Positions 10,407-41,059 of a stretch of DNA of 64,000 nucleotides are shown piece by piece. Both the position numbers and the translations under genes were made by a program. Source of the stretch: a virus. Lineage: Duplodnaviria > Caudoviricetes. The first letter of the stretch is position 1. Every line of letters begins with the position of its first letter. Below the pieces are notes generated by a model. It did not search any database. It saw nothing but the letters and a program-made list of their open reading frames with translations, and was not told the origin of the DNA. The stretch spans positions 22,688-86,687 of IMG/VR virus record IMGVR_UViG_3300031994_000058; one strand, 5' to 3'.

Positions 10407-11030
10407 TCAATAAATGAGATTGATTGTCTTCGCGGTATTACGGCTGAACTTCGAGTATGTAATGCGAACCAACGCACCAGCATACAAAGAACACCATGTT
10501 CCACGATCAATGTTAAATTGACGAAGCTCTCCTGTCGCATCGTTCATAACTGTAACATAACATCTGCACTCTCGACGAGTAATTTTTTCGTTTTCTTTAA
10601 GTCCCACATCGACAAAAGCAGGCATCGAGATTTCCTGATTTGGACCATAGGTATTTGAACGCTTCAAATTTCGCATAGGAACCCATTTCTTAATCTCGTA
10701 ATAATACTTGGTTGCATAGACAGGCTTCTCTGCGTAGGCGGTAAAACCATGCTCGTCCTTGCCAGTAGGAACCTTCTCCATCTCCTTAAACGTCCATTCA
10801 GTGCTGATAACTCTCGCGCCAGACGGAGCAGTCCATCCCGATTCCTTAACCATCTTCAGTTCTGACACTGTGACATTAGTTTCCCATCCAAGATTACGAA
10901 TCTCACCAGTGATTTCGATCGGCTGAGAATCCTTGATGAGATAAGCGAGACCGCCTGCGAGAACTCCGCAGATAGCCGTAGCAACCTTGTGCTCCTTTAC
11001 AAAGCTTACGATATTACCAAATGTACTCAT
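10407..11030 (-). CDS. Membrane-anchored hypothetical protein
   Basis: N-terminal TM (VATAICGVLAGGLAYLI) then beta-rich domain. Confidence 0.65.
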   Translation of the reverse strand: MSTFGNIVSFVKEHKVATAICGVLAGGLAYLIKDSQPIEITGEIRNLGWETNVTVSELKMVKESGWTAPSGARVISTEWTFKEMEKVPTGKDEHGFTAYAEKPVYATKYYYEIKKWVPMRNLKRSNTYGPNQEISMPAFVDVGLKENEKITRRECRCYVTVMNDATGELRQFNIDRGTWCSLYAGALVRITYSKFSRNTAKTINLIY

Positions 11031-11084
11031 AATAACTTCCTCCTTTTAGTCCGTGAGTGTTTCCTACAAAAAGAAAAAAGGAAA

Positions 11085-11188
11085 GGATGACCGAGCGGTC
11101 TTCAAAACCGCGTCTCCCGCCAGATTGACCAGCGGGCGTGTTACTCTTACCATACCATTTACGTCCCTGTCAATTCAGGAAGTCATCC
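11085..11188 (-). ncRNA. Promoter-driven tRNA-like structured small RNA (A)
   Basis: Closing stem GGATGAC/GTCATCC; arms TTCCTG/CAGGGA, CCCGC/GCGGG and GCGGT-TTTGAAG-ACCGC; U-tract at 11068-11079; promoter at 11192-11218; no convincing minus-strand ORF. Confidence 0.6.
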
Positions 11189-11280
11189 ATTCCATTAAGG
11201 CGGCTGTTTATTTTGCGAGTCGTCACTCTCATAGAGAGGGGCGTGTGGTATCGTGTCTGAAATCAGACTTTTTGCGAGTT

Positions 11281-11511
11281 TTATTCGCCGTTTACATACT
11301 CCTCGTATGAAATATAATCGTCGCCGTATTCCTTTGCGTCATCTTCGTCATACACGATGTCGATGTTTACTTCCGTCGGATCGATTCGTTCATCTGCGCA
11401 AAAGTCCTCGAACAACGTAATAGCCTCGTCTTCGGTCTTTGCGCAAAACTGAGTTCCATCTGGCCGGTCATCAATCTCCCACGAAAACTCATAGGTTTTG
11501 AACTTATCCAT
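11281..11511 (-). CDS. Acidic hypothetical protein
   Basis: Start MDKFK after GGAGG. Confidence 0.65.
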   Translation of the reverse strand: MDKFKTYEFSWEIDDRPDGTQFCAKTEDEAITLFEDFCADERIDPTEVNIDIVYDEDDAKEYGDDYISYEEYVNGE

Positions 11512-11533
11512 ATTATTTAACCTCCATTTTGAT

Positions 11534-12214
11534 TTAAATAGCAACCGGCTCCGGCAAGTCAATGATCCAAAGACCACTCATCGGAGCTCTTTTAACCGTA
11601 ATCTCAAAGTTCTTGAGATTGTCTTCGTTCCAACCCCACTTCTGTAAGATTGAATTGTTTCGCCTGTCGATGCCTTTCGCATACTCGCCACAAGCATCGT
11701 AATACTCATTGATGGAGCAGCGACCATATTCACAAATATATTCGACAATATAATTCTTAACACTTTCAGCATCGGCATATACCATCGGAATGTTCTGGAA
11801 TCCTGTCAGATAACTTGTCCGTCCATATGTAACGTTCTGTCCGAGTGGCTGATTCTGAGGCTGACGAGTGAGAGCGCTATAGTTTGTACGAGACACTCCA
11901 ACACCAAGCTTGTTCTGTCCGGTGTTAATCTTCGTATCGCCATACAGCGCCATGTCGATAGCGGCCTTTGATGCGTTCGCAACACCATCGATTACCGCAG
12001 GGAGCAACACACCAGTGATGACGAAAGCAGCTACATCCGTGGGATTTCTTCCCTGGAGAAACGTTGACTTGATTTTTCCCCAGAGTCCTGCATTCTTGGG
12101 TTTGGCTGCATCCGAGAGAATAGGACGAGGAATCTCTCGGTGTTTCTCAGCTTCTGCCTGAGCATCCTTGCTTACTTGTGAGTTGGCATACGGGTCGATC
12201 TTATGTTCTGCCAT
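11534..12214 (-). CDS. Conserved-looking phage hypothetical protein
   Basis: EYGRCSINEYYDACG...KWGW...IIDLPEPVAI; AAGGAGG RBS. Confidence 0.7.
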   Translation of the reverse strand: MAEHKIDPYANSQVSKDAQAEAEKHREIPRPILSDAAKPKNAGLWGKIKSTFLQGRNPTDVAAFVITGVLLPAVIDGVANASKAAIDMALYGDTKINTGQNKLGVGVSRTNYSALTRQPQNQPLGQNVTYGRTSYLTGFQNIPMVYADAESVKNYIVEYICEYGRCSINEYYDACGEYAKGIDRRNNSILQKWGWNEDNLKNFEITVKRAPMSGLWIIDLPEPVAI

Positions 12215-12253
12215 TTTGAATACCTCCTTATGGTTGTAAAAAATTTAAAGAAC

Positions 12254-12329
12254 GATGTAAATGACAGGATTCAAACCTGCAATCTATTGCGTTTCAGCAA
12301 TCGTGTTCCCATAACACTTCATTTACATC
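12254..12329 (-). ncRNA. tRNA-like cloverleaf RNA (B) with a 6-nt anticodon loop
   Basis: Acceptor GATGTAAATG/CATTTACATC; D arm GTGT-TATGGGA-ACAC; ATTGC-TGAAAC-GCAAT; variable AGATT; T arm GCAGG-TTTGAAT-CCTGT; no CCA. Confidence 0.7.
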
Positions 12330-12368
12330 ATTCCTACTATAGCGGTTGTAGAATTTGCGAATCACAGC

Positions 12369-13220
12369 TTACCGGTAACTGTGAAATATCGGATCGGCGT
12401 GAAGGTTAATCTTTAAACATGGAATCTCCGTATCCGGTACAAGCGCTGCATCAACAAGATTATCAACGTTAATGAGACCACTCTCGTTAATATCCCAATA
12501 GAACATATCGCCGATGTCTCTGTTTTCAGTAACACCTCTACCATTGCCAGTATCGACAGCAATCTCGTTTAGATCGGCAAGAATCTCGTTCAGACTTACC
12601 TGATCGCCATAATTCAGACGACTGTTGATGCGATTAAATACCGCCTTAACGTCATCAATCTTCGCGACAAATGGTACATTAGTATAAGGTGCTAAGAAGA
12701 TGCTGTACTGAGTATTGATCCCGACATATTCTACGGCTTTCTTATCTGGCGGATTCTTATCGACCTGATCCTGAGCAACCTTCTGGTTGATGAAGCTCAT
12801 CTTCTTTTCACCAACAACTTCCTCGGTCTTTTTCTGGAATTCCTTGAGACTCATATCAGCAATTGTGTAAGCCGCAGACAGAGCCACCTGACGCTTATCC
12901 GAAATATAATCAGACCCGATAATTGCTGCTGCTGAAAGAGCAAAGGAAAGTCCGACACCCCAATACGCAGGGATTACAGCCTTTACGGTTTCGATGGGCG
13001 TGAGTGTAATATCATCAATGTTCGTCACGCTTCCGTCTTCCGATCGATCGGCTGCTTTCTCCGCCTTAGCATTCTTGATACGAAGGTCAGCATCGTCCTT
13101 CTGTTTGATTGCCCAGATAATGGTTCCAAACATTCCGCTGATGCCAAGCGCCGTGAGAATTTTGGGACTATGCTTGACAAGTACTTTCGTCCCACTCTGC
13201 AAGATTTCGTTTACTGCCAT
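12369..13220 (-). CDS. DUF6353-like phage protein
   Basis: KHSPKILTALGISGM...IIGSDYIS.KRQVALSAAY pattern. Confidence 0.7.
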   Translation of the reverse strand: MAVNEILQSGTKVLVKHSPKILTALGISGMFGTIIWAIKQKDDADLRIKNAKAEKAADRSEDGSVTNIDDITLTPIETVKAVIPAYWGVGLSFALSAAAIIGSDYISDKRQVALSAAYTIADMSLKEFQKKTEEVVGEKKMSFINQKVAQDQVDKNPPDKKAVEYVGINTQYSIFLAPYTNVPFVAKIDDVKAVFNRINSRLNYGDQVSLNEILADLNEIAVDTGNGRGVTENRDIGDMFYWDINESGLINVDNLVDAALVPDTEIPCLKINLHADPIFHSYR

Positions 13221-13266
13221 TTTGATTTCCTCCTTGTGGTTGTGAAAAATGAAAAAGATAAAGAAC

Positions 13267-13310
13267 GATGTAAAAGGTGGGATTTGAACCCACTACATTT
13301 CATTTACATC
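13267..13310 (-). ncRNA. tRNA minihelix-like RNA (C): acceptor stem plus T arm
   Basis: GATGTAAA...GTGGG-TTCAAAT-CCCAC-C-TTTTACATC; flanks shared with element B. Confidence 0.6.
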
Positions 13311-13317
13311 ATTCCTA

Positions 13318-13701
13318 CTATGGGAGTTGTTTTGTTTGCGAGAATGGCAGTACTTTGCCTTTCCAACCATCATATCGTTCTTTATCTTTCTCAAATTCTT
13401 TCCGCACCTTTCCAAGAACATCTTCGAGAGATTCCTCGCTATTATGCGGATCATCGCCAGCATTATAAAAACTATATGCGTCAGTCATTCCGAATTCAAA
13501 TCCGCTACACCAAGGGAATAGACGAAATCGGAATCTGGGTCTCTTGTAGAATTGAGACCCAAGGACGATGTCTTCGTGTTTTAGAATTGCAAACCGTCCA
13601 TCATTAACCTTTAGCTTTTTACACGCGTGATAGTACCCTTTTGAATATCCAGAGACATACGCTTGAAATTGAAGTCTAGATTTAAGTTTCTCAAACATCA
13701 T
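13318..13701 (-). CDS. Hypothetical protein
   Basis: Start MMFEK after GAGGAGG; ends in TAG. Confidence 0.55.
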   Translation of the reverse strand: MMFEKLKSRLQFQAYVSGYSKGYYHACKKLKVNDGRFAILKHEDIVLGSQFYKRPRFRFRLFPWCSGFEFGMTDAYSFYNAGDDPHNSEESLEDVLGKVRKEFEKDKERYDGWKGKVLPFSQTKQLP

Positions 13702-14119
13702 CGTCCTCCTCGAGTGGTTCGTCGATAATGGCATCCATGGTGGAGAAAATAAGGCGAAGAATATCTTCTACCTTTCGCATAATTCGACGATTCGGGAAAT
13801 CATAAACGGTCTCCTTATCGTAAATGTTTGCGGCAATAAACTCAACCCAGCAGCCTTTTGCTCTCCACCATTTGTCGTAAAAATATACAACGTCGGCTTC
13901 TGCTAGTTTTTGGATGGATGCTCCAAGATACCATAGACGAGGGGCATTTAATGGGGCATTCTCGTGTTTAATAGTTTGAATAAGTTCGAGTTCGTCGGTC
14001 TCCTTAAGTCGCTCTTCATTTGTAAGGTCCTCTTTCAGAATCTTAAGAGCTTTACTCATATCTTCCTGTACTTCGTTGTCGGGTCGGCCATTCATTTTTA
14101 AACTGATAAACGCTTTCAT
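13691..14119 (-). CDS. Nucleoside 2-deoxyribosyltransferase-like (DUF4406-type) protein
   Basis: AFISLKMNG...LWYLGASIQKLAEADVVYF...W..AKGCWVE. Confidence 0.7.
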   Translation of the reverse strand: MKAFISLKMNGRPDNEVQEDMSKALKILKEDLTNEERLKETDELELIQTIKHENAPLNAPRLWYLGASIQKLAEADVVYFYDKWWRAKGCWVEFIAANIYDKETVYDFPNRRIMRKVEDILRLIFSTMDAIIDEPLEEDDDV

Positions 14120-18845: not shown

Positions 18846-18939
18846 AAAGCCACCTCCTTATTAAAGTCAATGTTTGAAATGCGAGAAAAAATTTAGGAGC
18901 CATGTATAAAACACGACTCCCATTTTGAAACCTCCTTAA

Positions 18940-19377: not shown

Positions 19378-21882
19378 TTACGCCGTACCAGTCCAGTTGA
19401 TTGTAAAGTTCGTAGCTCCCCATCCATTTGCATATCCTGAAATAGCGTTCTCTTTGCGATTGATGTTAAACGTTATACCATCGCAGCCCGCAAACGCGGA
19501 AGAGTTAATAGTCGTCATCGTATTCGGAAGATTAACAGTTACCAAACTTGTACAATTCAGAAATGCGTTGGCGTTAATAGTTCTTAGCACAGGATTAGAT
19601 TCAGAAGAAGGCGTAAAGGTTGTCATATTACTGCATCCTTCAAAAGCGTTCGCGTTGATCGTTGTTACCTTAGGCGGTAATATAAAATTGACAAATCCGA
19701 CACAACCTCTAAAGCAACCGGTGCCGATAGACGTCCATAATGGTGCCGTTATAGAGGTAAGACTTGCGCAACCGTCAAACATATAAGACGAACCACTCGT
19801 TTGTTTAGAAATAGTTGCCGATTGCAAGGCTGCGCAATTCTCAAACGTACTAGCGCCAATGGACGTCGGCATAGAAAGTGTTATCGATGTAAGACTAGTG
19901 CAACCGCTAAAGCACTTCTCTCCAACAGTATAAGTTTTTGCGTTTTCAGTAAACGTCGTCAAACCGGTGCATCCAGCGAATGCTTGGATGCCTACTGCCG
20001 TTACCGCGGTTGGTAAAGTGAAAGACGTTAAAGAAACACAATCCTTGAACGCCGTTTTAGCGATAGTCTTTATAGTAGATTGAAGTTCGATTGACGTAAG
20101 CGCCGAGCATCCCTCAAAGCAAGACTCGCCAATAGTTGTGTATTTTTCACCAATGACTGTTGTAGATGGATTCTCAGTGTTAATCGTAACTGTTTGAAGA
20201 CCGGTACAATGATAAAATCCTAATTTTGGCATAGTTGTGCAATTTCGAGGAAGCATGATGCTAGTTAAACTGGTACAATTTTGGCACATTCCCTCGCCCA
20301 ACGACGTCACTGTTTTAGCGATTGGTAAATCTTCAAGAGCCGTGCAACCAGAGAAAACATAATCACCTATAGTGGTTAGTTTAACTGTTTGTCCATCTGG
20401 AATAACATATTCGAACTTCTCCATGGCAGAGCATCCCTGAAAAACTGAATCGCCAATCGACGTGACTGTATAAGGAATACGTACCGCATCACCTTGAGAT
20501 ACTACAGCATCTATATCGGGGTAGCTGATGTTTTTTAGTTTAGTGCAGTTCTTAAACGTTTCATTGAGAATAGAGGTTATTAATGATGAATAAGTAACGC
20601 TGGTGTTACTGTAATCGACCATTGATACACTAGTCAAATTAATACATCCGTCAAATACACTAGCCTCCAATCGTTTGGTAGATCCAGTACCGCCAACGAT
20701 TGTAATATGATCCAACGCCGTACACCCATAGAATGCGTGATCGCTTGGATATATTACCTTACCAGTTTCAAACGCAATGAGCGATTCACAATTATAGAAA
20801 CCGGCCTGACCAACGACAGTGGGATTTTCTGTAAGAGTTATATCAGTGAGTTTTGAACACCCGCTAAACATATATGCTGACACATTGCCAACAGGAACCG
20901 CATCCGTGTTAAACTTAGGCATTTTAGCTTCGACCAAATTCTCACATCCCATAAACATTGAGTTGTAGTCAGTTGTTTTGGTACTTGCTAATTGTATATC
21001 GTTATTTGCAGGTTCAAGATTCGTTAAATCGACATACGTCAAAGATGTGCAATTTTTAAAAGACGTTGGATAAATGGATATAACGCCCTCAGGGATGACG
21101 AGTCGAGTAATTGCACAATTCTCAAAAGCGTTATTTCCGATCACATAGATAGACGATGTTATGATATTGCTGACATCGGTAAGGCCTGTACCTTTAAACA
21201 TATTGTCAGAAATGAACCACAAATTTTCCGGCATGTCGACCGTCGTTAATGATTCGCAACCCTCAAACATCGACTCATAGTGCTCCTGTGCATATTCGGC
21301 GGGCCACGTAGAGCTAGCTCCGGAGGTTCTCTCCTGATTTATCTCAGTGACTGTTTTAATGTTTACAGTAGTCGGCAGATCGATCTCAGTAATTGATTTG
21401 CAACCTTTGAAACAGTGTTTTCCGAATGTAATTTTATTGTCCGGAATCTCGATCTCAAGAAGACTTTCACAATTTAAGAAGGCATCATCCTGGATTTCCA
21501 TCGTGCCTTCAGGAATAACTACCGACTCGATAGAAGTAATGCCCTTGAACGCTTCACTGCCGATTACTGTACATTCGGTGGGAATAATCGCACTAATAGT
21601 GTTCGTGCTAAGTCTAAAAGTGGTTGGGTCACTAAGAAATATCGCACCGCTACTGCTTCCGCCTTCTTGTTGAGAAAGCTTGTAAAGAGCGTCGTGAATA
21701 GCCATGCGGATGTCTTTTCCATACGTACTTTCACGAATAGTAGTCAGCTCACCTTTAATTGCCGATCCAGGATACATAAGTTTTACCAGCTTCTCTAAAG
21801 CCGAATCAACGTTATTTAGGACGTCTTCACCACCAGATTTAGACTTTATAGCCTCAAGCTGAGAACTAATATCAACTGCCAT
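19378..21882 (-). CDS. BspA-type (TpLRR/LRR_5) leucine-rich repeat protein, 834 aa
   Basis: Many repeats of the L..I.IP..V..IG..AF.GC..L type; N-terminal YGKDIRMAIHDAL; C-cap GWGA..FTINW. Confidence 0.92.
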   Translation of the reverse strand: MAVDISSQLEAIKSKSGGEDVLNNVDSALEKLVKLMYPGSAIKGELTTIRESTYGKDIRMAIHDALYKLSQQEGGSSSGAIFLSDPTTFRLSTNTISAIIPTECTVIGSEAFKGITSIESVVIPEGTMEIQDDAFLNCESLLEIEIPDNKITFGKHCFKGCKSITEIDLPTTVNIKTVTEINQERTSGASSTWPAEYAQEHYESMFEGCESLTTVDMPENLWFISDNMFKGTGLTDVSNIITSSIYVIGNNAFENCAITRLVIPEGVISIYPTSFKNCTSLTYVDLTNLEPANNDIQLASTKTTDYNSMFMGCENLVEAKMPKFNTDAVPVGNVSAYMFSGCSKLTDITLTENPTVVGQAGFYNCESLIAFETGKVIYPSDHAFYGCTALDHITIVGGTGSTKRLEASVFDGCINLTSVSMVDYSNTSVTYSSLITSILNETFKNCTKLKNISYPDIDAVVSQGDAVRIPYTVTSIGDSVFQGCSAMEKFEYVIPDGQTVKLTTIGDYVFSGCTALEDLPIAKTVTSLGEGMCQNCTSLTSIMLPRNCTTMPKLGFYHCTGLQTVTINTENPSTTVIGEKYTTIGESCFEGCSALTSIELQSTIKTIAKTAFKDCVSLTSFTLPTAVTAVGIQAFAGCTGLTTFTENAKTYTVGEKCFSGCTSLTSITLSMPTSIGASTFENCAALQSATISKQTSGSSYMFDGCASLTSITAPLWTSIGTGCFRGCVGFVNFILPPKVTTINANAFEGCSNMTTFTPSSESNPVLRTINANAFLNCTSLVTVNLPNTMTTINSSAFAGCDGITFNINRKENAISGYANGWGATNFTINWTGTA

Positions 21883-21902: not shown

Positions 21903-22679
21903 TTATGGATCCCACACGACGGTCGCAAATCTAGCGCCCCATGGAGCATAGGAAGAACCTACTACCTGGTCGGCAGACTTGTGAACTACAATCGTATTAA
22001 TATTAGTACAATTATAAAAAGCCTGCTGCTGTATTTCCAAAATAGACGATGGTATCTCTACAGTTCCGCGAATGTTAGAGCAGTTAGCAAAGCAACCGTC
22101 CATTAAAGTTTCAATACCATCTTCAAACGCGAGCTCTCGAATCATGGAATATTGCAAGCATCCGCCATATATAGTTTTTATATTACCAGGAATGGGACCA
22201 CCAATATCTTCGATATTACCATAGTTCCAAGAAGACGCCGCGTATACACCGGGCTTTATAGCATTTATACTTCTAGGAAAATTTACTTTTTTAAGTAACG
22301 GACAACCACTCATAAAGCTATTGCCCATATCGGTTATTGCATCACTAACATGACAGGCGAGTACGGTGCTAAATGAAGAATATAGGTTTGCAGTTAGAGC
22401 CACAGGTTCAATTTGTGATCCAAAATATAGCCCTAGTCTTTTGTACCAGGTCCATCTTCTGAGAGCGTTTGACACCTCTGAATGATCTGTAGATGCTAAT
22501 AAAACCTCAGTAGGTTCTAACGATCCGTTTAATATCGTGATACTTATTTTAGTCTCATCTATTAACACTGGAGGGTCTACCGGAGTGAATCTTTGCCATA
22601 AAAGCTCATTATCTTTGTAGATCTTCTTTAATGGTATCTGTCCATAATAGATGGATGAGTTATATATCGTCATTATCAA
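21903..22679 (-). CDS. BspA-type LRR protein with phage-fibre-like N-terminus
   Basis: IYYGQIPLKKIYKDNELLW; LRR units; C-cap APWGARFATVVW. Confidence 0.8.
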   Translation of the reverse strand: MIMTIYNSSIYYGQIPLKKIYKDNELLWQRFTPVDPPVLIDETKISITILNGSLEPTEVLLASTDHSEVSNALRRWTWYKRLGLYFGSQIEPVALTANLYSSFSTVLACHVSDAITDMGNSFMSGCPLLKKVNFPRSINAIKPGVYAASSWNYGNIEDIGGPIPGNIKTIYGGCLQYSMIRELAFEDGIETLMDGCFANCSNIRGTVEIPSSILEIQQQAFYNCTNINTIVVHKSADQVVGSSYAPWGARFATVVWDP

Positions 22680-24415
22680 TTACCTCCAAGCCATCTAATC
22701 TCGCAATCTTCTGGCAAATATGCTGTATAGGCTTTCGGCGTCCACGGATTTCCATTAGAATCAACTATACTTCCTTCTGTGCGATTTATATTTATTCTTT
22801 TTAAAGCCCTACAACCGGCGAACACTCTCGGATTGCTTGGATCATCAAAAATTTGTTCAACAGCATTACCTATAGTAACTGATTCTAGTGAACTACAACC
22901 ATTAAAAGCCCCACCGCCAATATATGTCGGGCCATTGGGTATACTGATCGTTTTTAAACTTCTGCAAGATTCGAAAGCCGCTGCTCCGATACTAGCTACG
23001 CTGCTAGGAATGGATACCGATTCTAATGCAATACAATGTCCGCATACATAGTTGCTAATATCAGTGAGGTGTGGAGGAAAGGCCAGAGAAGTAAGTGATT
23101 GACAATTATAAAACGCAAACGCCTCTATTGACGTTAGAGACTCCGGAAGAACCAAATTATCTAAAAGCGTACATCCCCAAAATGCATGATCTTTGATGGT
23201 TATTAGATTATCAGACAAGCTGATGGCAGTCATACTTTCACAAGACTCAAACGCTTTTGTTCCGATCGTTTGTACAGAGTTAGGTATGCTTATATAAGGC
23301 AATGATGTACACTCGGCGAACGCTCTCGCTCCTATATCTTTAAATGCTGGTTCATCCTGCAACACCACAGTTGTTAAGGCATAACAATTGTCGAAGCATG
23401 CTTCTGGTATTGAAATCTGATTACCGGGATGAAATACAACGGTTTTTAAATTAGAACACATCATGAACGATCCTATGCCCAAATATGATATACTCGCGAG
23501 CTCTATTCGCTCCAAGGAATAACAATCTCTGAATGTCTCGTTCCCTATATGGGTCACATTTGACAAGTCGATATCTTTAAGCGCCATGCAATATGCAAAA
23601 GCGTTATTGTTTAGATAATATGCATTGTTCAAATCGACAGTAGTTAATCCCTCACATCTATAAAAAGCATTGGACTCTACATCGGTTATTGAATCCGTAA
23701 ATACAACATCATCAAGAAGCCTGTCATATTCGAACATATTATACGTTACTCGTGTCATCGATTCTCCGAATGTAACATTAGTCAGGTATTCGTTCCAGCT
23801 ATATTCGTGTCCCCTAGTTGATGAGTGAATATATCGATTCGGTATTACCACTTCGCTAAGTTTTGTATTATGAAACGCGGATCTCTCTATGAATAATCCG
23901 ATATCAGACTCCGTATACGTAACATATCGAAGTGTACTTCCAGTAAATGCATATTCGCGAATAGCTGTAATTGTACCAGGAACATGAAATGCAAGAATGT
24001 TTTTGCAGGTTTGAAATGTTCTATTAGGAACTTCGGTCACTCCACACTCTTCACCAATCCAAATTCGATACATAATGTTTGGATCATTCTCGTAATACTC
24101 ATCGAGCTTGGCACGGGCTTCGGCGAGCGTCTTACAATAGAAAACATCATCGGTATCCGCATCACCATCCAACATGATTACCGAAATCCAATAATCTTTC
24201 CACACCGGTTCTGTGGGATCATATATACAATATGCAACGTTTTGCTCCTTTACTTCTAAAGCATCATACTCCTCTTGCGTTACAAGTTTTTTCGTGGTTG
24301 CTCGAAGTCCATGGTTGTAAAGAATCCAAAGAGCATCTGAAATAGGTCCTCGAATATCTTTACCATACGTACCTTTGCGAATTTCCCGTCCTTGTCCCTC
24401 TATATATACTGCCAT
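22676..24415 (-). CDS. BspA-type LRR protein, 579 aa
   Basis: YGKDIRGPISDAL, TQEEYDALEVKEQNVAYCI, then about 15 LRR units. Confidence 0.92.
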   Translation of the reverse strand: MAVYIEGQGREIRKGTYGKDIRGPISDALWILYNHGLRATTKKLVTQEEYDALEVKEQNVAYCIYDPTEPVWKDYWISVIMLDGDADTDDVFYCKTLAEARAKLDEYYENDPNIMYRIWIGEECGVTEVPNRTFQTCKNILAFHVPGTITAIREYAFTGSTLRYVTYTESDIGLFIERSAFHNTKLSEVVIPNRYIHSSTRGHEYSWNEYLTNVTFGESMTRVTYNMFEYDRLLDDVVFTDSITDVESNAFYRCEGLTTVDLNNAYYLNNNAFAYCMALKDIDLSNVTHIGNETFRDCYSLERIELASISYLGIGSFMMCSNLKTVVFHPGNQISIPEACFDNCYALTTVVLQDEPAFKDIGARAFAECTSLPYISIPNSVQTIGTKAFESCESMTAISLSDNLITIKDHAFWGCTLLDNLVLPESLTSIEAFAFYNCQSLTSLAFPPHLTDISNYVCGHCIALESVSIPSSVASIGAAAFESCRSLKTISIPNGPTYIGGGAFNGCSSLESVTIGNAVEQIFDDPSNPRVFAGCRALKRININRTEGSIVDSNGNPWTPKAYTAYLPEDCEIRWLGGN

Positions 24416-39658: not shown

Positions 39659-40011
39659 TAGTCGTTACCTCCTCCCATGAGATACATAAGAATAAAAAGC
39701 CAAAGCACGTCCCGCGAAGAATCAGACTTAAACACATTGGGAATGTTTGTCTCCTCGATTCGGTTTTCAAAGCTGGGGAGATTGTACTTGATGTCGAACG
39801 TTGTTGCTCGTGCGATGAGAACGGACAGATACTTGCCCATTGTGTCGTACTGTTCCTGAAGCAAAGAATACTCGGGTGAATCCTCACCGATTTTCTTCAT
39901 ATGCTTCTCGAGACCATACATACGAAGATCACACTGTTCGATCTCTGCGACGAGCCGCTCCTTCCAGTCGTCTGACATCATTCCGTCAATGGTGTCTCTT
40001 AAAGTCTTCAT
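39658..40011 (-). CDS. Small coiled-coil phage protein (crAss001_48-like)
   Basis: TIDGMMSDDWKERLVAE...LQEQYDTMGKYLSVLIARA. Confidence 0.55.
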   Translation of the reverse strand: MKTLRDTIDGMMSDDWKERLVAEIEQCDLRMYGLEKHMKKIGEDSPEYSLLQEQYDTMGKYLSVLIARATTFDIKYNLPSFENRIEETNIPNVFKSDSSRDVLWLFILMYLMGGGND

Positions 40012-41059
40012 ATGAAATTCCTCCTTTTATTATAGCTTTTAAAAGCCTTATAAATTTTAGTTTTAGATATCGATTTTTGAGTTCTCTTGTGGTGGTGATA
40101 GTTAATAATGACAATCGTGAAAGCATTCCGGACGCCATCTTAGAGGTCAGAACTAAGTTATTACGGATCCTGGAATGAAGAGATCTGTACTTTCTTTTAA
40201 GACGTAATAGAACCGGTTTTCGAAGCATAAATCTGGTCCCTTGATACCGGTAACCAAGAGCCGATACGGGACGAGATGATACTTTGTACACTTGCCAGTT
40301 AGGTTTTAACCGTAAACAAATGCCGTTTAAGTAATCGGATATGGCCCGAACTACTTTATGGAGCATTCTCTTATTAGAATGAAAAAGTGTTAAATTGTCC
40401 ATATAACGAAGATAATGCGGTACATGAAGAACCTCACGAATGTAATGATCGAGAGGTTGAAGAAGGACATTCGCGAACCATTGACTATGGAATGCGCCTA
40501 TCATTACACCATCCTGTATTGATATTTTTATCAATTTCATCACTCGCTCATCATTTATAAGACTTCGAAATCGACTTTCTATAATTGATGGTAAAATGGA
40601 CTCATAAAAATGATGAATGTCGAGTTCTGCACAATATTTGGTATGCTTTGGATCATTTTTCAGCCATTTACGAATACCAGTTTGTCCGCGTTTTAGACCT
40701 CGACCTTTAATCGAACCGCAGCACCAATAGTCCATTCCTCGCATCATTACGGGCATCAAAGCCTGTACAAGCATATGGTGGATGTACTGGTCGGGCCATA
40801 ATTTAGGCTCTGTTATAGTTCGAATCTTCTTGGCGTTGTGGTCATATCGCCTAGTGACTTTTGGTCTACTTGGCTTAAATCCCTTTATTACGATGTTTCG
40901 TAACTCTCTAACACGCTCTTCTAATGTAGCTTCTATCCATATCACGGTTCGATTAAGACCCTTACGTGTGCGCCTGTGGGATTTGTTTACGTCTCTAATC
41001 GCTTGTTTAATGTTGTCATCGCTAATTAATATGGGAAAGAGATTCTTTACTCTCTTCAT
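39986..41059 (-). CDS. DGR reverse transcriptase (YMDN variant)
   Basis: PDQYIHH, GSIKGRG, ELDIHHFYESI, GVMIGAFHSQWFAN, HYLRYMDNL; adjacent TR/VR pair. Confidence 0.92.
   Translation of the reverse strand: MKRVKNLFPILISDDNIKQAIRDVNKSHRRTRKGLNRTVIWIEATLEERVRELRNIVIKGFKPSRPKVTRRYDHNAKKIRTITEPKLWPDQYIHHMLVQALMPVMMRGMDYWCCGSIKGRGLKRGQTGIRKWLKNDPKHTKYCAELDIHHFYESILPSIIESRFRSLINDERVMKLIKISIQDGVMIGAFHSQWFANVLLQPLDHYIREVLHVPHYLRYMDNLTLFHSNKRMLHKVVRAISDYLNGICLRLKPNWQVYKVSSRPVSALGYRYQGTRFMLRKPVLLRLKRKYRSLHSRIRNNLVLTSKMASGMLSRLSLLTITTTRELKNRYLKLKFIRLLKAIIKGGISYEDFKRHH

Follow-up and report, generated by a model that had tools for sequence, protein, structure and literature searches.

In plant mitochondria, mRNA ends are formed where t-elements or stem-loops resembling an acceptor stem guide RNase P and RNase Z, as has been proposed or shown, and the processing of t-elements yields stable t-element RNAs (Forner et al. 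2007, PMC1920247). The element of a tailed phage described here resembles t-elements in that both are non-canonical cloverleaves with a conserved T arm located beside mRNA ends (PMC1920247), and the graded series leading from a full tRNA through the t-element to an acceptor-like stem-loop has a graded counterpart in the phage. In contrast to the organellar t-elements, the phage element follows a promoter of its own, is clamped by a covarying 8-bp helix and is followed by a U-run, and its cleavage is a proposal.

The mascRNA of MALAT1 and the tRNA-like/miRNA transcripts of murine gammaherpesvirus 68 are tRNA look-alikes which are cut by RNase P and/or RNase Z. A non-aminoacylated look-alike serves there as the handle that splits one transcript, as is proposed for the phage, although those transcripts are made by eukaryotic Pol II or Pol III whereas the phage element lies in the leader of a bacterial mRNA, and we do not claim that the sequences are related. 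Processing handles that resemble tRNA are already known, then, from organelles, from a herpesvirus and from a long non-coding RNA of humans.

With the canonical phage tRNAs (RF00005) the element shares the cloverleaf, G18-G19 and the T-loop motifs, and its D arm is identical to that of ordinary phage tRNAs, e.g. tRNA-Gly(UCC) at L016:763-835. It differs from them in its 6-nt loop (4–7 nt in homologues), in the absence of a conserved anticodon and of CCA, in its paired leader and trailer and in serving as an mRNA leader. Frameshift-suppressor tRNAs of the sufD and sufJ type have enlarged anticodon loops. One alternative drawing of the phage element, made by ARAGORN with an 8-nt loop and a four-base anticodon, looks like these suppressors; unlike in them, however, a G-C pair reduces the phage loop to 6 nt, the loop is not conserved, and no four-base codon usage was detectable.

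Phage "tRNAs" with odd anticodon loops are usually discarded as pseudogenes in annotation. Here, such an element was found to represent a conserved covarying RNA family, a tRNA body without decoding that is wired into early-gene transcription units. The open-access literature that we searched contained no description of promoter-proximal, helix-clamped, anticodon-less tRNA mimics leading protein genes of tailed phages.

The phage genome

The analysed stretch of DNA (the window, 64,000 nt) is the last 64 kb of a one-contig virus record of 86,687 bp from an uncultured phage, the completeness of which was estimated by CheckV as 100%. All genes are located on the minus strand. The CW_7 repeat and the strong Shine-Dalgarno sites suggest a Gram-positive host. 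ARAGORN reported a single tRNA-like gene, 12254-12327 (-), with an undefined anticodon, both in the window and in the whole genome, and no canonical tRNA was found in the genome.

An RNA ligase of 212 aa (PF09414/phrog_548) is encoded outside the window (G000:C1:7416-8054 (-), L034), next to the gene of a 697-aa protein of unknown function (phrog_1735). RNA repair in a phage that also makes tRNA mimics is a possible role of this ligase.

Structure of the tRNA-like element

The Rfam tRNA model RF00005 matched 12256-12326 (-) over the full model positions 1-71 with 50.9 bits (E 5e-10; gathering score 29), and the sole irregularity with respect to the model was one base deleted in the anticodon loop. 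When the region 12000-12600 was scanned by cmscan with the other families of Rfam 15 (tmRNA, Y RNA/YrlA, T-box etc.; E<=10), tRNA remained the only family identified; the two further matches were at chance level, far under the gathering scores. The parts of the element are as follows.

12256..12326 (-), tRNA-like cloverleaf core (RF00005, ARAGORN, fold z, covariation)
12320-12326/12257-12263 (-), acceptor, within the cloverleaf core
12303-12317 (-), D arm, within the cloverleaf core
12286-12301 (-), anticodon-like arm, within the cloverleaf core
12291..12296 (-), 6-nt loop UGAAAC replacing the 7-nt anticodon loop (direct reading, RF00005, fold)
12264-12280 (-), T arm, within the cloverleaf core
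12256 (-), discriminator, within the cloverleaf core
12327..12334 (-), 5' strand (leader) of the closing helix, 8 bp, which pairs with 12248-12255 and extends the acceptor
12248..12255 (-), 3' strand (trailer) of the closing helix, no CCA (reading, fold, covariation)
12238..12247 (-), U-rich tract past the closing helix (U-run also in homologues, flanks read)

Direct reading gave an acceptor of 7 bp, the linker AA, a D stem of 4 bp with the loop UAUGGGA, an anticodon-type stem of 5 bp (AUUGC/GCAAU) closing the 6-nt loop UGAAAC, a 5-nt variable region (AGAUU) and a T stem of 5 bp with the loop UUUGAAU. The core of a tRNA (7/4/5/5-bp stems, G18-G19 and the UUCRA T-loop) is present, with the T-loop position C56 occupied by U in the window copy and the loop UUCGAAU in relatives. 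Canonical anticodon loops have 7 nt, U33 and a purine at position 37; in place of such a loop the element has UGAAAC. The discriminator A is followed by UCG and the element therefore has no CCA. Beyond the 7-bp acceptor, leader and trailer add 8 bp, which results in an outer helix of 15 bp.

The free energy of the 84-nt stretch was -29.3 kcal/mol as compared with -14.9 ± 2.9 for shuffled sequences (z = -4.9), and none of 200 shuffles was as good. The C31-G39 pair was retained in both the minimum-energy and centroid folds; it is open in the ARAGORN drawing, which thereby has an 8-nt loop with the four-base anticodon gaaa. The near-perfect cloverleaf with a 6-nt loop and no CCA, as described in the first-pass annotation, is borne out by the Rfam score, the direct reading and the fold. 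That annotation had given the loop as 6 nt, or 8 nt if the last pair opens: the former agrees with the fold, the latter appears in the ARAGORN drawing only. The acceptor is indeed extended beyond 7 bp, although to 7 + 8 = 15 bp and not to the 10 bp originally stated.

Homologues and their loops

A nucleotide search with 11000-14000 against GenBank phages gave no match, and only distant protein relatives (<=31% identity) were found among these phages. With the upstream 283-aa DUF6353 protein (phrog_2152) as a query, 36 homologues were obtained from metagenome protein collections, and their contigs were taken from IMG/VR, ENA and several Logan runs. A tRNA-like homologue adjoins the DUF6353 gene in nearly all the fetched contigs, being located downstream of it in the closest relatives, L001 and L006, and upstream in the others. 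Fifteen homologues from independent assemblies of related phages had loops of 4, 6 or 7 nt at the anticodon position. The loops observed are listed here with the contigs that carry them.

UGAAAC, window and L028
UAAAAC, L001
UUAAAC, L006
UGAAAU, L007
UUACCC, second copy in the 91-kb relative G002
GCGA (GNRA tetraloop), L011, L033 and L008
UUAU, L005, which is the human-faecal phage record MT835485.1
GAAA, further paralogue in L030/L031
UAGAUAA, CAGAUGA, UAGAUGA and UAGAUGG (7-nt loops, all with A33 instead of U33), L009, L032, L012, L013, L014 and L024

In the L009- and L013-type members the acceptor/D/T junctions are off-register, and L013 and L014 score under the Rfam report threshold.

IMG/VR (one contig and a second record), Logan (two contigs) and ENA (one scaffold) each contributed sequences with the 6-nt loop. 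Since the same loop length recurs in these independent assemblies, it is neither an assembly error nor a private deletion. The single base missing with respect to the Rfam consensus, and nothing more, would fit an ordinary tRNA gene of the phage that was altered by a private 1-nt deletion or by faulty assembly. This explanation, which the first-pass annotation had set against its own, is refuted by the relatives: they do not carry a normal tRNA-Phe with a 7-nt loop.

It is also very improbable that the element is a working tRNA, either a tRNA-Phe(GAA) whose loop is unusual or a suppressor of +1 frameshifts that reads UUUC with an 8-nt loop, in spite of the good tRNA body (RF00005) and the four-base anticodon gaaa proposed by ARAGORN. 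One loop position is G, A or U across three close relatives, which excludes a conserved anticodon, and no anticodon is conserved among the orthologues; other homologues have tetraloops in its place. The label "Phe-like" is unsupported as well, since the loop base varies among the closest relatives (UGAAAC, UAAAAC, UUAAAC, UGAAAU). The 8-nt loop would leave a stem of 4 bp, whereas the fold holds C31-G39. Moreover, UUU followed by C in frame was observed 65 times against 71 expected and is not avoided, and the three TTTC +1 junction candidates found genome-wide are at chance level and all lie at ordinary gene borders. Four-base decoding of UUUC was rejected on the grounds that no intact 5-bp stem with an 8- or 9-nt loop, no codon depletion and no conserved loop were found.

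RF00005 searches of four related phage records detected tRNA-like elements alone, an ordinary tRNA being found in none of the four. When IMG/VR was scanned for exact patterns taken from the element, a single true relative was obtained, in addition to chance matches in coding sequence (L002, L003). A pattern consisting of the D arm and the T loop was tried as a probe for the family and was abandoned: it returned ordinary phage tRNAs (Glu, Gly, Trp, Arg), which indicates that the D arm is not specific to the element.

The 91-kb relative G002 carries its second full tRNA-like element at one end of the record (G002:C1:125-215 (-); L039, L042), behind the same promoter motif, and part of this element is repeated at the other end (91065-91112 (-)). 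The end repeat points to terminal redundancy or to a circularly permuted assembly. Three unrelated IMG/VR phages contain tRNA-like sequences with odd anticodon arms at L020:10880-10932 (-), L022:5253-5303 (+) and L017:10408-10454 (-); their D and T arms are normal and ARAGORN made no call at those positions.

Covariation and sequence conservation

Seven members with canonical geometry, including 9-nt flanks, were aligned by plain MAFFT (alignment A4). When the alignment was compared with the cloverleaf plus closing helix, 98.5% of the cells formed standard pairs and both sides changed in 17 of 29 pairs. The covariation score was 0.644 against 0.242 ± 0.036 for shuffled alignments, none of 500 reaching 0.644, and pairing fell to 36-56% in controls in which the partners were shifted by 1-3 columns. 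Compensatory two-sided changes that keep the stems were therefore detected across related phages. They affected 6/8 pairs of the closing helix, 6/7 of the acceptor, 2/5 of the anticodon-type stem and 3/5 of the T stem; the D stem was invariant in A4. A covariance model built from A4 (R1) recovered 22 matches. In the R1-fitted alignment of 20 distinct sequences, which leans towards the model, 95.7% of the cells pair and 27/29 pairs are two-sided, with 4-5 covarying pairs per helix.

Comparison of the window with L006 gave 86.5% identity for the element as against 65.5% for third codon positions of the DUF6353 gene; the respective values for L001 are 90% and 74%. The element thus evolves more slowly than third codon positions, which means that the cloverleaf is under purifying selection and is not drifting. 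G18-G19, the UUCRA T-loop and the variable region are conserved, as is the 12-bp acceptor+T stack; the loop at the anticodon position (4-7 nt) and its stem (5-8 bp) are variable. A fixed body with a free loop is the pattern expected if the distance from acceptor to elbow is read and the anticodon is not. The earlier suggestion that tRNA shape is selected rather than decoding is in agreement with the variable loops, the covarying stems and the difference between 86.5% and 65.5% identity. As judged from the sequences, the element is a selected tRNA look-alike, neither a working tRNA nor a decaying one.

These data bear on a different explanation, according to which the closing helix and the U-run alone are selected, as a 5'-terminal mRNA stabiliser and/or as the intrinsic terminator of the upstream gene, and the cloverleaf is an old tRNA gene trapped and eroding within this functional hairpin. 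The covariation in 6/8 closing-helix pairs is what such a hairpin would produce. However, the inner stems covary too (anticodon 2/5 and T 3/5 in seven sequences, with the 20 sequences giving 4-5 pairs in each helix), G18-G19 and both the D arm and the T loop are near-invariant though the flanking protein is only 45-60% identical, and evolution slower than that of synonymous sites is unlike a neutral relic. We consider a trapped relic unlikely.

Promoter motif and gene context

The element is located between a promoter-like motif and the start of the gene 11534-12214, with the following signals on the gene strand.

12354..12360 (-), first promoter box TCGCAAA, a repeated phage motif
12334..12339 (-), second promoter box TAGTAG (consensus T[A/T]ATAG), a repeated phage motif
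12212..12229 (-), ribosome-binding site AAGGAGG (12223-12229) and ATG (12212-12214), start of the gene 11534-12214 (phrog_4079)

The motif consists of cTCGCAAa, a fixed 16-nt spacer with a conserved ACA and T[A/T]ATAG, and it occurs in 28 copies on the gene strand of the whole genome (e.g. at window positions 18884, 18241, 16692, 17424, 6588 and 5265). The leader position of the element and the promoter 12334-12360 proposed in the first-pass annotation are thereby supported, both the ribosome-binding site and the ATG of 11534-12214 having been found; the transcription start is a predicted one. The motif also precedes each homologous element whose upstream flank was read, and these homologues are followed by a U-run, a ribosome-binding site and a gene, with no second promoter in between.

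In at least four other copies of the motif a Shine-Dalgarno sequence directly abuts the second box, from which we infer that transcription starts in or at this box. Such a start does not correspond to sigma-70 geometry, as far as can be judged from the motif copies, and the closing helix would begin within 1-2 bases of the RNA 5' end. The promoter motif of the phage was missed by a sigma-70 consensus scan. Among the large ORFs, neither Pfam nor PHROGs recognised a phage RNA polymerase or a sigma factor.

No space is left for another promoter, and the gene 11534-12214 is therefore necessarily transcribed through the element. The stop codon of the DUF6353 gene lies 8 nt ahead of the promoter and this gene has no terminator of its own; read-through transcripts consequently place the element between two cistrons. 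The 15-bp closing stem is rich in A/U and G.U pairs, has a branched interior and is followed by the U-run, and a terminator consensus scan made no call there. The U-rich tract 12238..12247 may play a terminator-like role. Both the U-rich run past the closing helix, seen wherever flanks were read, and the lack of a separate terminator of the upstream gene ahead of the promoter are further features that a hairpin enclosing a tRNA relic would have.

The 9-mer TCAAAATGG, found e.g. at 12211-12219 and 13217-13225, represents a translation-start context (...TCAAA-ATG-G) shared by the gene starts that were read.

Paralogues and reduced forms

Two other leaders in the window resemble the element, and further forms were found at equivalent sites of related phages.

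13260..13316 (-), mini-helix paralogue (R1 42.2 bits, RF00005 24 bits), with a promoter copy at 13315-13341
11082..11168 (-), possible third, degenerate paralogue, weak (R1 16.7 bits, E 0.12)
L006:2375-2462, four-arm form which has lost the D- and T-loop motifs
L008, form without the T arm
L001:3929-4003, plain hairpin with the same closing-helix sequence
L030/L031, unrelated, non-tRNA interior in a similar closing helix

The mini-helix 13260-13316 shares the closing-helix and acceptor sequence with the cloverleaf and has a canonical T arm, but neither a D arm nor an anticodon arm, and it leads the DUF6353 gene 12369-13220. The cassettes 12197-12360 and 13203-13341 form direct repeats, about 80% identical, on either side of this gene. 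The possible third paralogue has a T-like arm, whose loop is UUUGAAG, and an anticodon-like arm of 8 bp that ends in a 5-nt loop; it is preceded by a promoter copy at 11218 and leads the gene 10407-11030, and its counterpart in L030/L031 has the GAAA tetraloop. That the closing helix is kept while inner arms are lost in 13260-13316, L008, L001 and L030/L031 again fits the idea of a selected closing helix around a relic.

Private variants are common to both leaders of one genome (12248-12335 and 13260-13316 in the window; 2375-2462 and 3386-3474 in L006): the trailer ends with ...ACATCGTTC in both window copies and with ...ACATTGTTC in both L006 copies. This suggests concerted evolution, by gene conversion or recombination between the repeats flanking the DUF6353 gene.

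The possibility that the element is a part of an integration site (attP) was dropped: the full cloverleaf covaries, several copies are linked to promoters and no prophage counterpart is known to us from the searches, since protein-guided scanning of JGI metagenomes and 185,579 species genomes yielded nothing new and did not find a prophage copy of the element.

Discussion

On the best reading of these sequence data, the element is a non-decoding module derived from a tRNA, which serves as a 5' leader and stands between cistrons. We assign a probability of roughly 0.45 to the more specific proposal that it acts as a tRNA-shaped punctuation and leader module at which RNase P and RNase Z set mRNA ends and a tRNA-like RNA is released. 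A tRNA-derived RNA would have lost decoding and retained its L-shaped body, i.e. the acceptor/T-arm stack and the D/T-loop elbow, for this function. Transcription from the phage-specific promoter would place the closing helix and the cloverleaf at the extreme 5' end of the 11534-12214 mRNA. Host enzymes acting on tRNA ends, which read the acceptor, T arm and elbow only, could then recognise the element, provided that the RNase Z and CCA biology of the host is as assumed. A cut by RNase P at position 1 would end the upstream mRNA, and a cut by RNase Z after the CCA-less discriminator would define where the downstream mRNA begins and hence influence its stability and translation. The CCA-adding enzyme might act after RNase Z, and a stable tRNA-shaped RNA of ~72 nt would be released. 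In the uncleaved RNA, a protected 5' terminus and a terminator-like 3' boundary would be provided by the paired 5' end together with the U-rich tract. The transcription start, the two RNase cleavages and the consequences for the fate of the mRNA are all inferred parts of this model.

The conserved elbow, the free anticodon end, the mini-helix, the absence of CCA and the location at an mRNA boundary point together to enzymes that measure the distance from acceptor to elbow, namely RNase P, RNase Z and the CCA-adding enzyme. As in the case of t-elements, non-canonical cloverleaves and a mini-helix with a conserved T arm lie directly beside mRNA. A mini-helix composed of the acceptor and T arm is reportedly the minimal substrate of RNase P. 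It is recognised by RNase Z and the CCA-adding enzyme as well. The paralogue within the same genome is exactly such a mini-helix, which was counted in favour of processing. On the other hand, a paired leader and trailer hinder both RNase P and RNase Z in pre-tRNA processing. The 8-bp leader/trailer helix covaries, which indicates that the unprocessed form is under selection and counts against processing. The same holds for the form without a T arm in L008, the upstream copy in L006, the L001 hairpin and the L030/L031 leaders, which RNase P and RNase Z should not recognise.

A released mimic could also act in trans. A decoy with a loop that can be neither cut nor read would soak up a host factor that binds the tRNA body, such as a nuclease or toxin of a defence directed at tRNA, or an enzyme that modifies or processes tRNA. 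We regard this function as rather doubtful, and the same applies to its extension to the whole family, in which anticodon-less mimics with sealed or shortened loops, freed from the 5' ends of early mRNAs, would constitute an RNA-based counter-defence. The genome carries two firm copies and a weak third one, each behind the strong repeated promoter, several homologues have sealed tetraloops, and the absence of normal tRNAs from all four related phage records (0/4) suggests that the element does not belong to a decoding set. The RNA ligase encoded by the phage (PF09414/phrog_548) would fit as well; phage T4 uses an enzyme of the RNA-ligase class to repair nuclease-cut tRNA. However, it is the anticodon loop that the characterised anticodon nucleases recognise, and precisely this part is absent or variable in the phage elements; a decoy, moreover, would not need the strict leader position before a protein gene.

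If RNase P and RNase Z do act on the element, tRNA-punctuation-style mRNA processing would occur in a tailed phage. Processing would explain how such phages set the ends and lifetimes of their mRNAs, and the element would be a processing signal that is both compact and portable. Action in trans would instead make it an RNA decoy that counters functions of the host directed at tRNA. In either case the family offers a defined 87-nt substrate and natural variants (cloverleaf, mini-helix, T-arm-less form and plain hairpin) for direct tests.

Two observations concern other loci of the phage. A second DUF6353 paralogue of 378 aa (G000:C1:10297-11433 (-), L034) is likewise preceded by a copy of the promoter, by a 5' hairpin and by a U-rich run. 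Amid the tail genes an RVT_1 reverse transcriptase is encoded at 39986-41059 (-), with two large BspA-type leucine-rich-repeat proteins nearby (19378-21882 (-) and 22676-24415 (-)), and these genes may form a diversity-generating retroelement.
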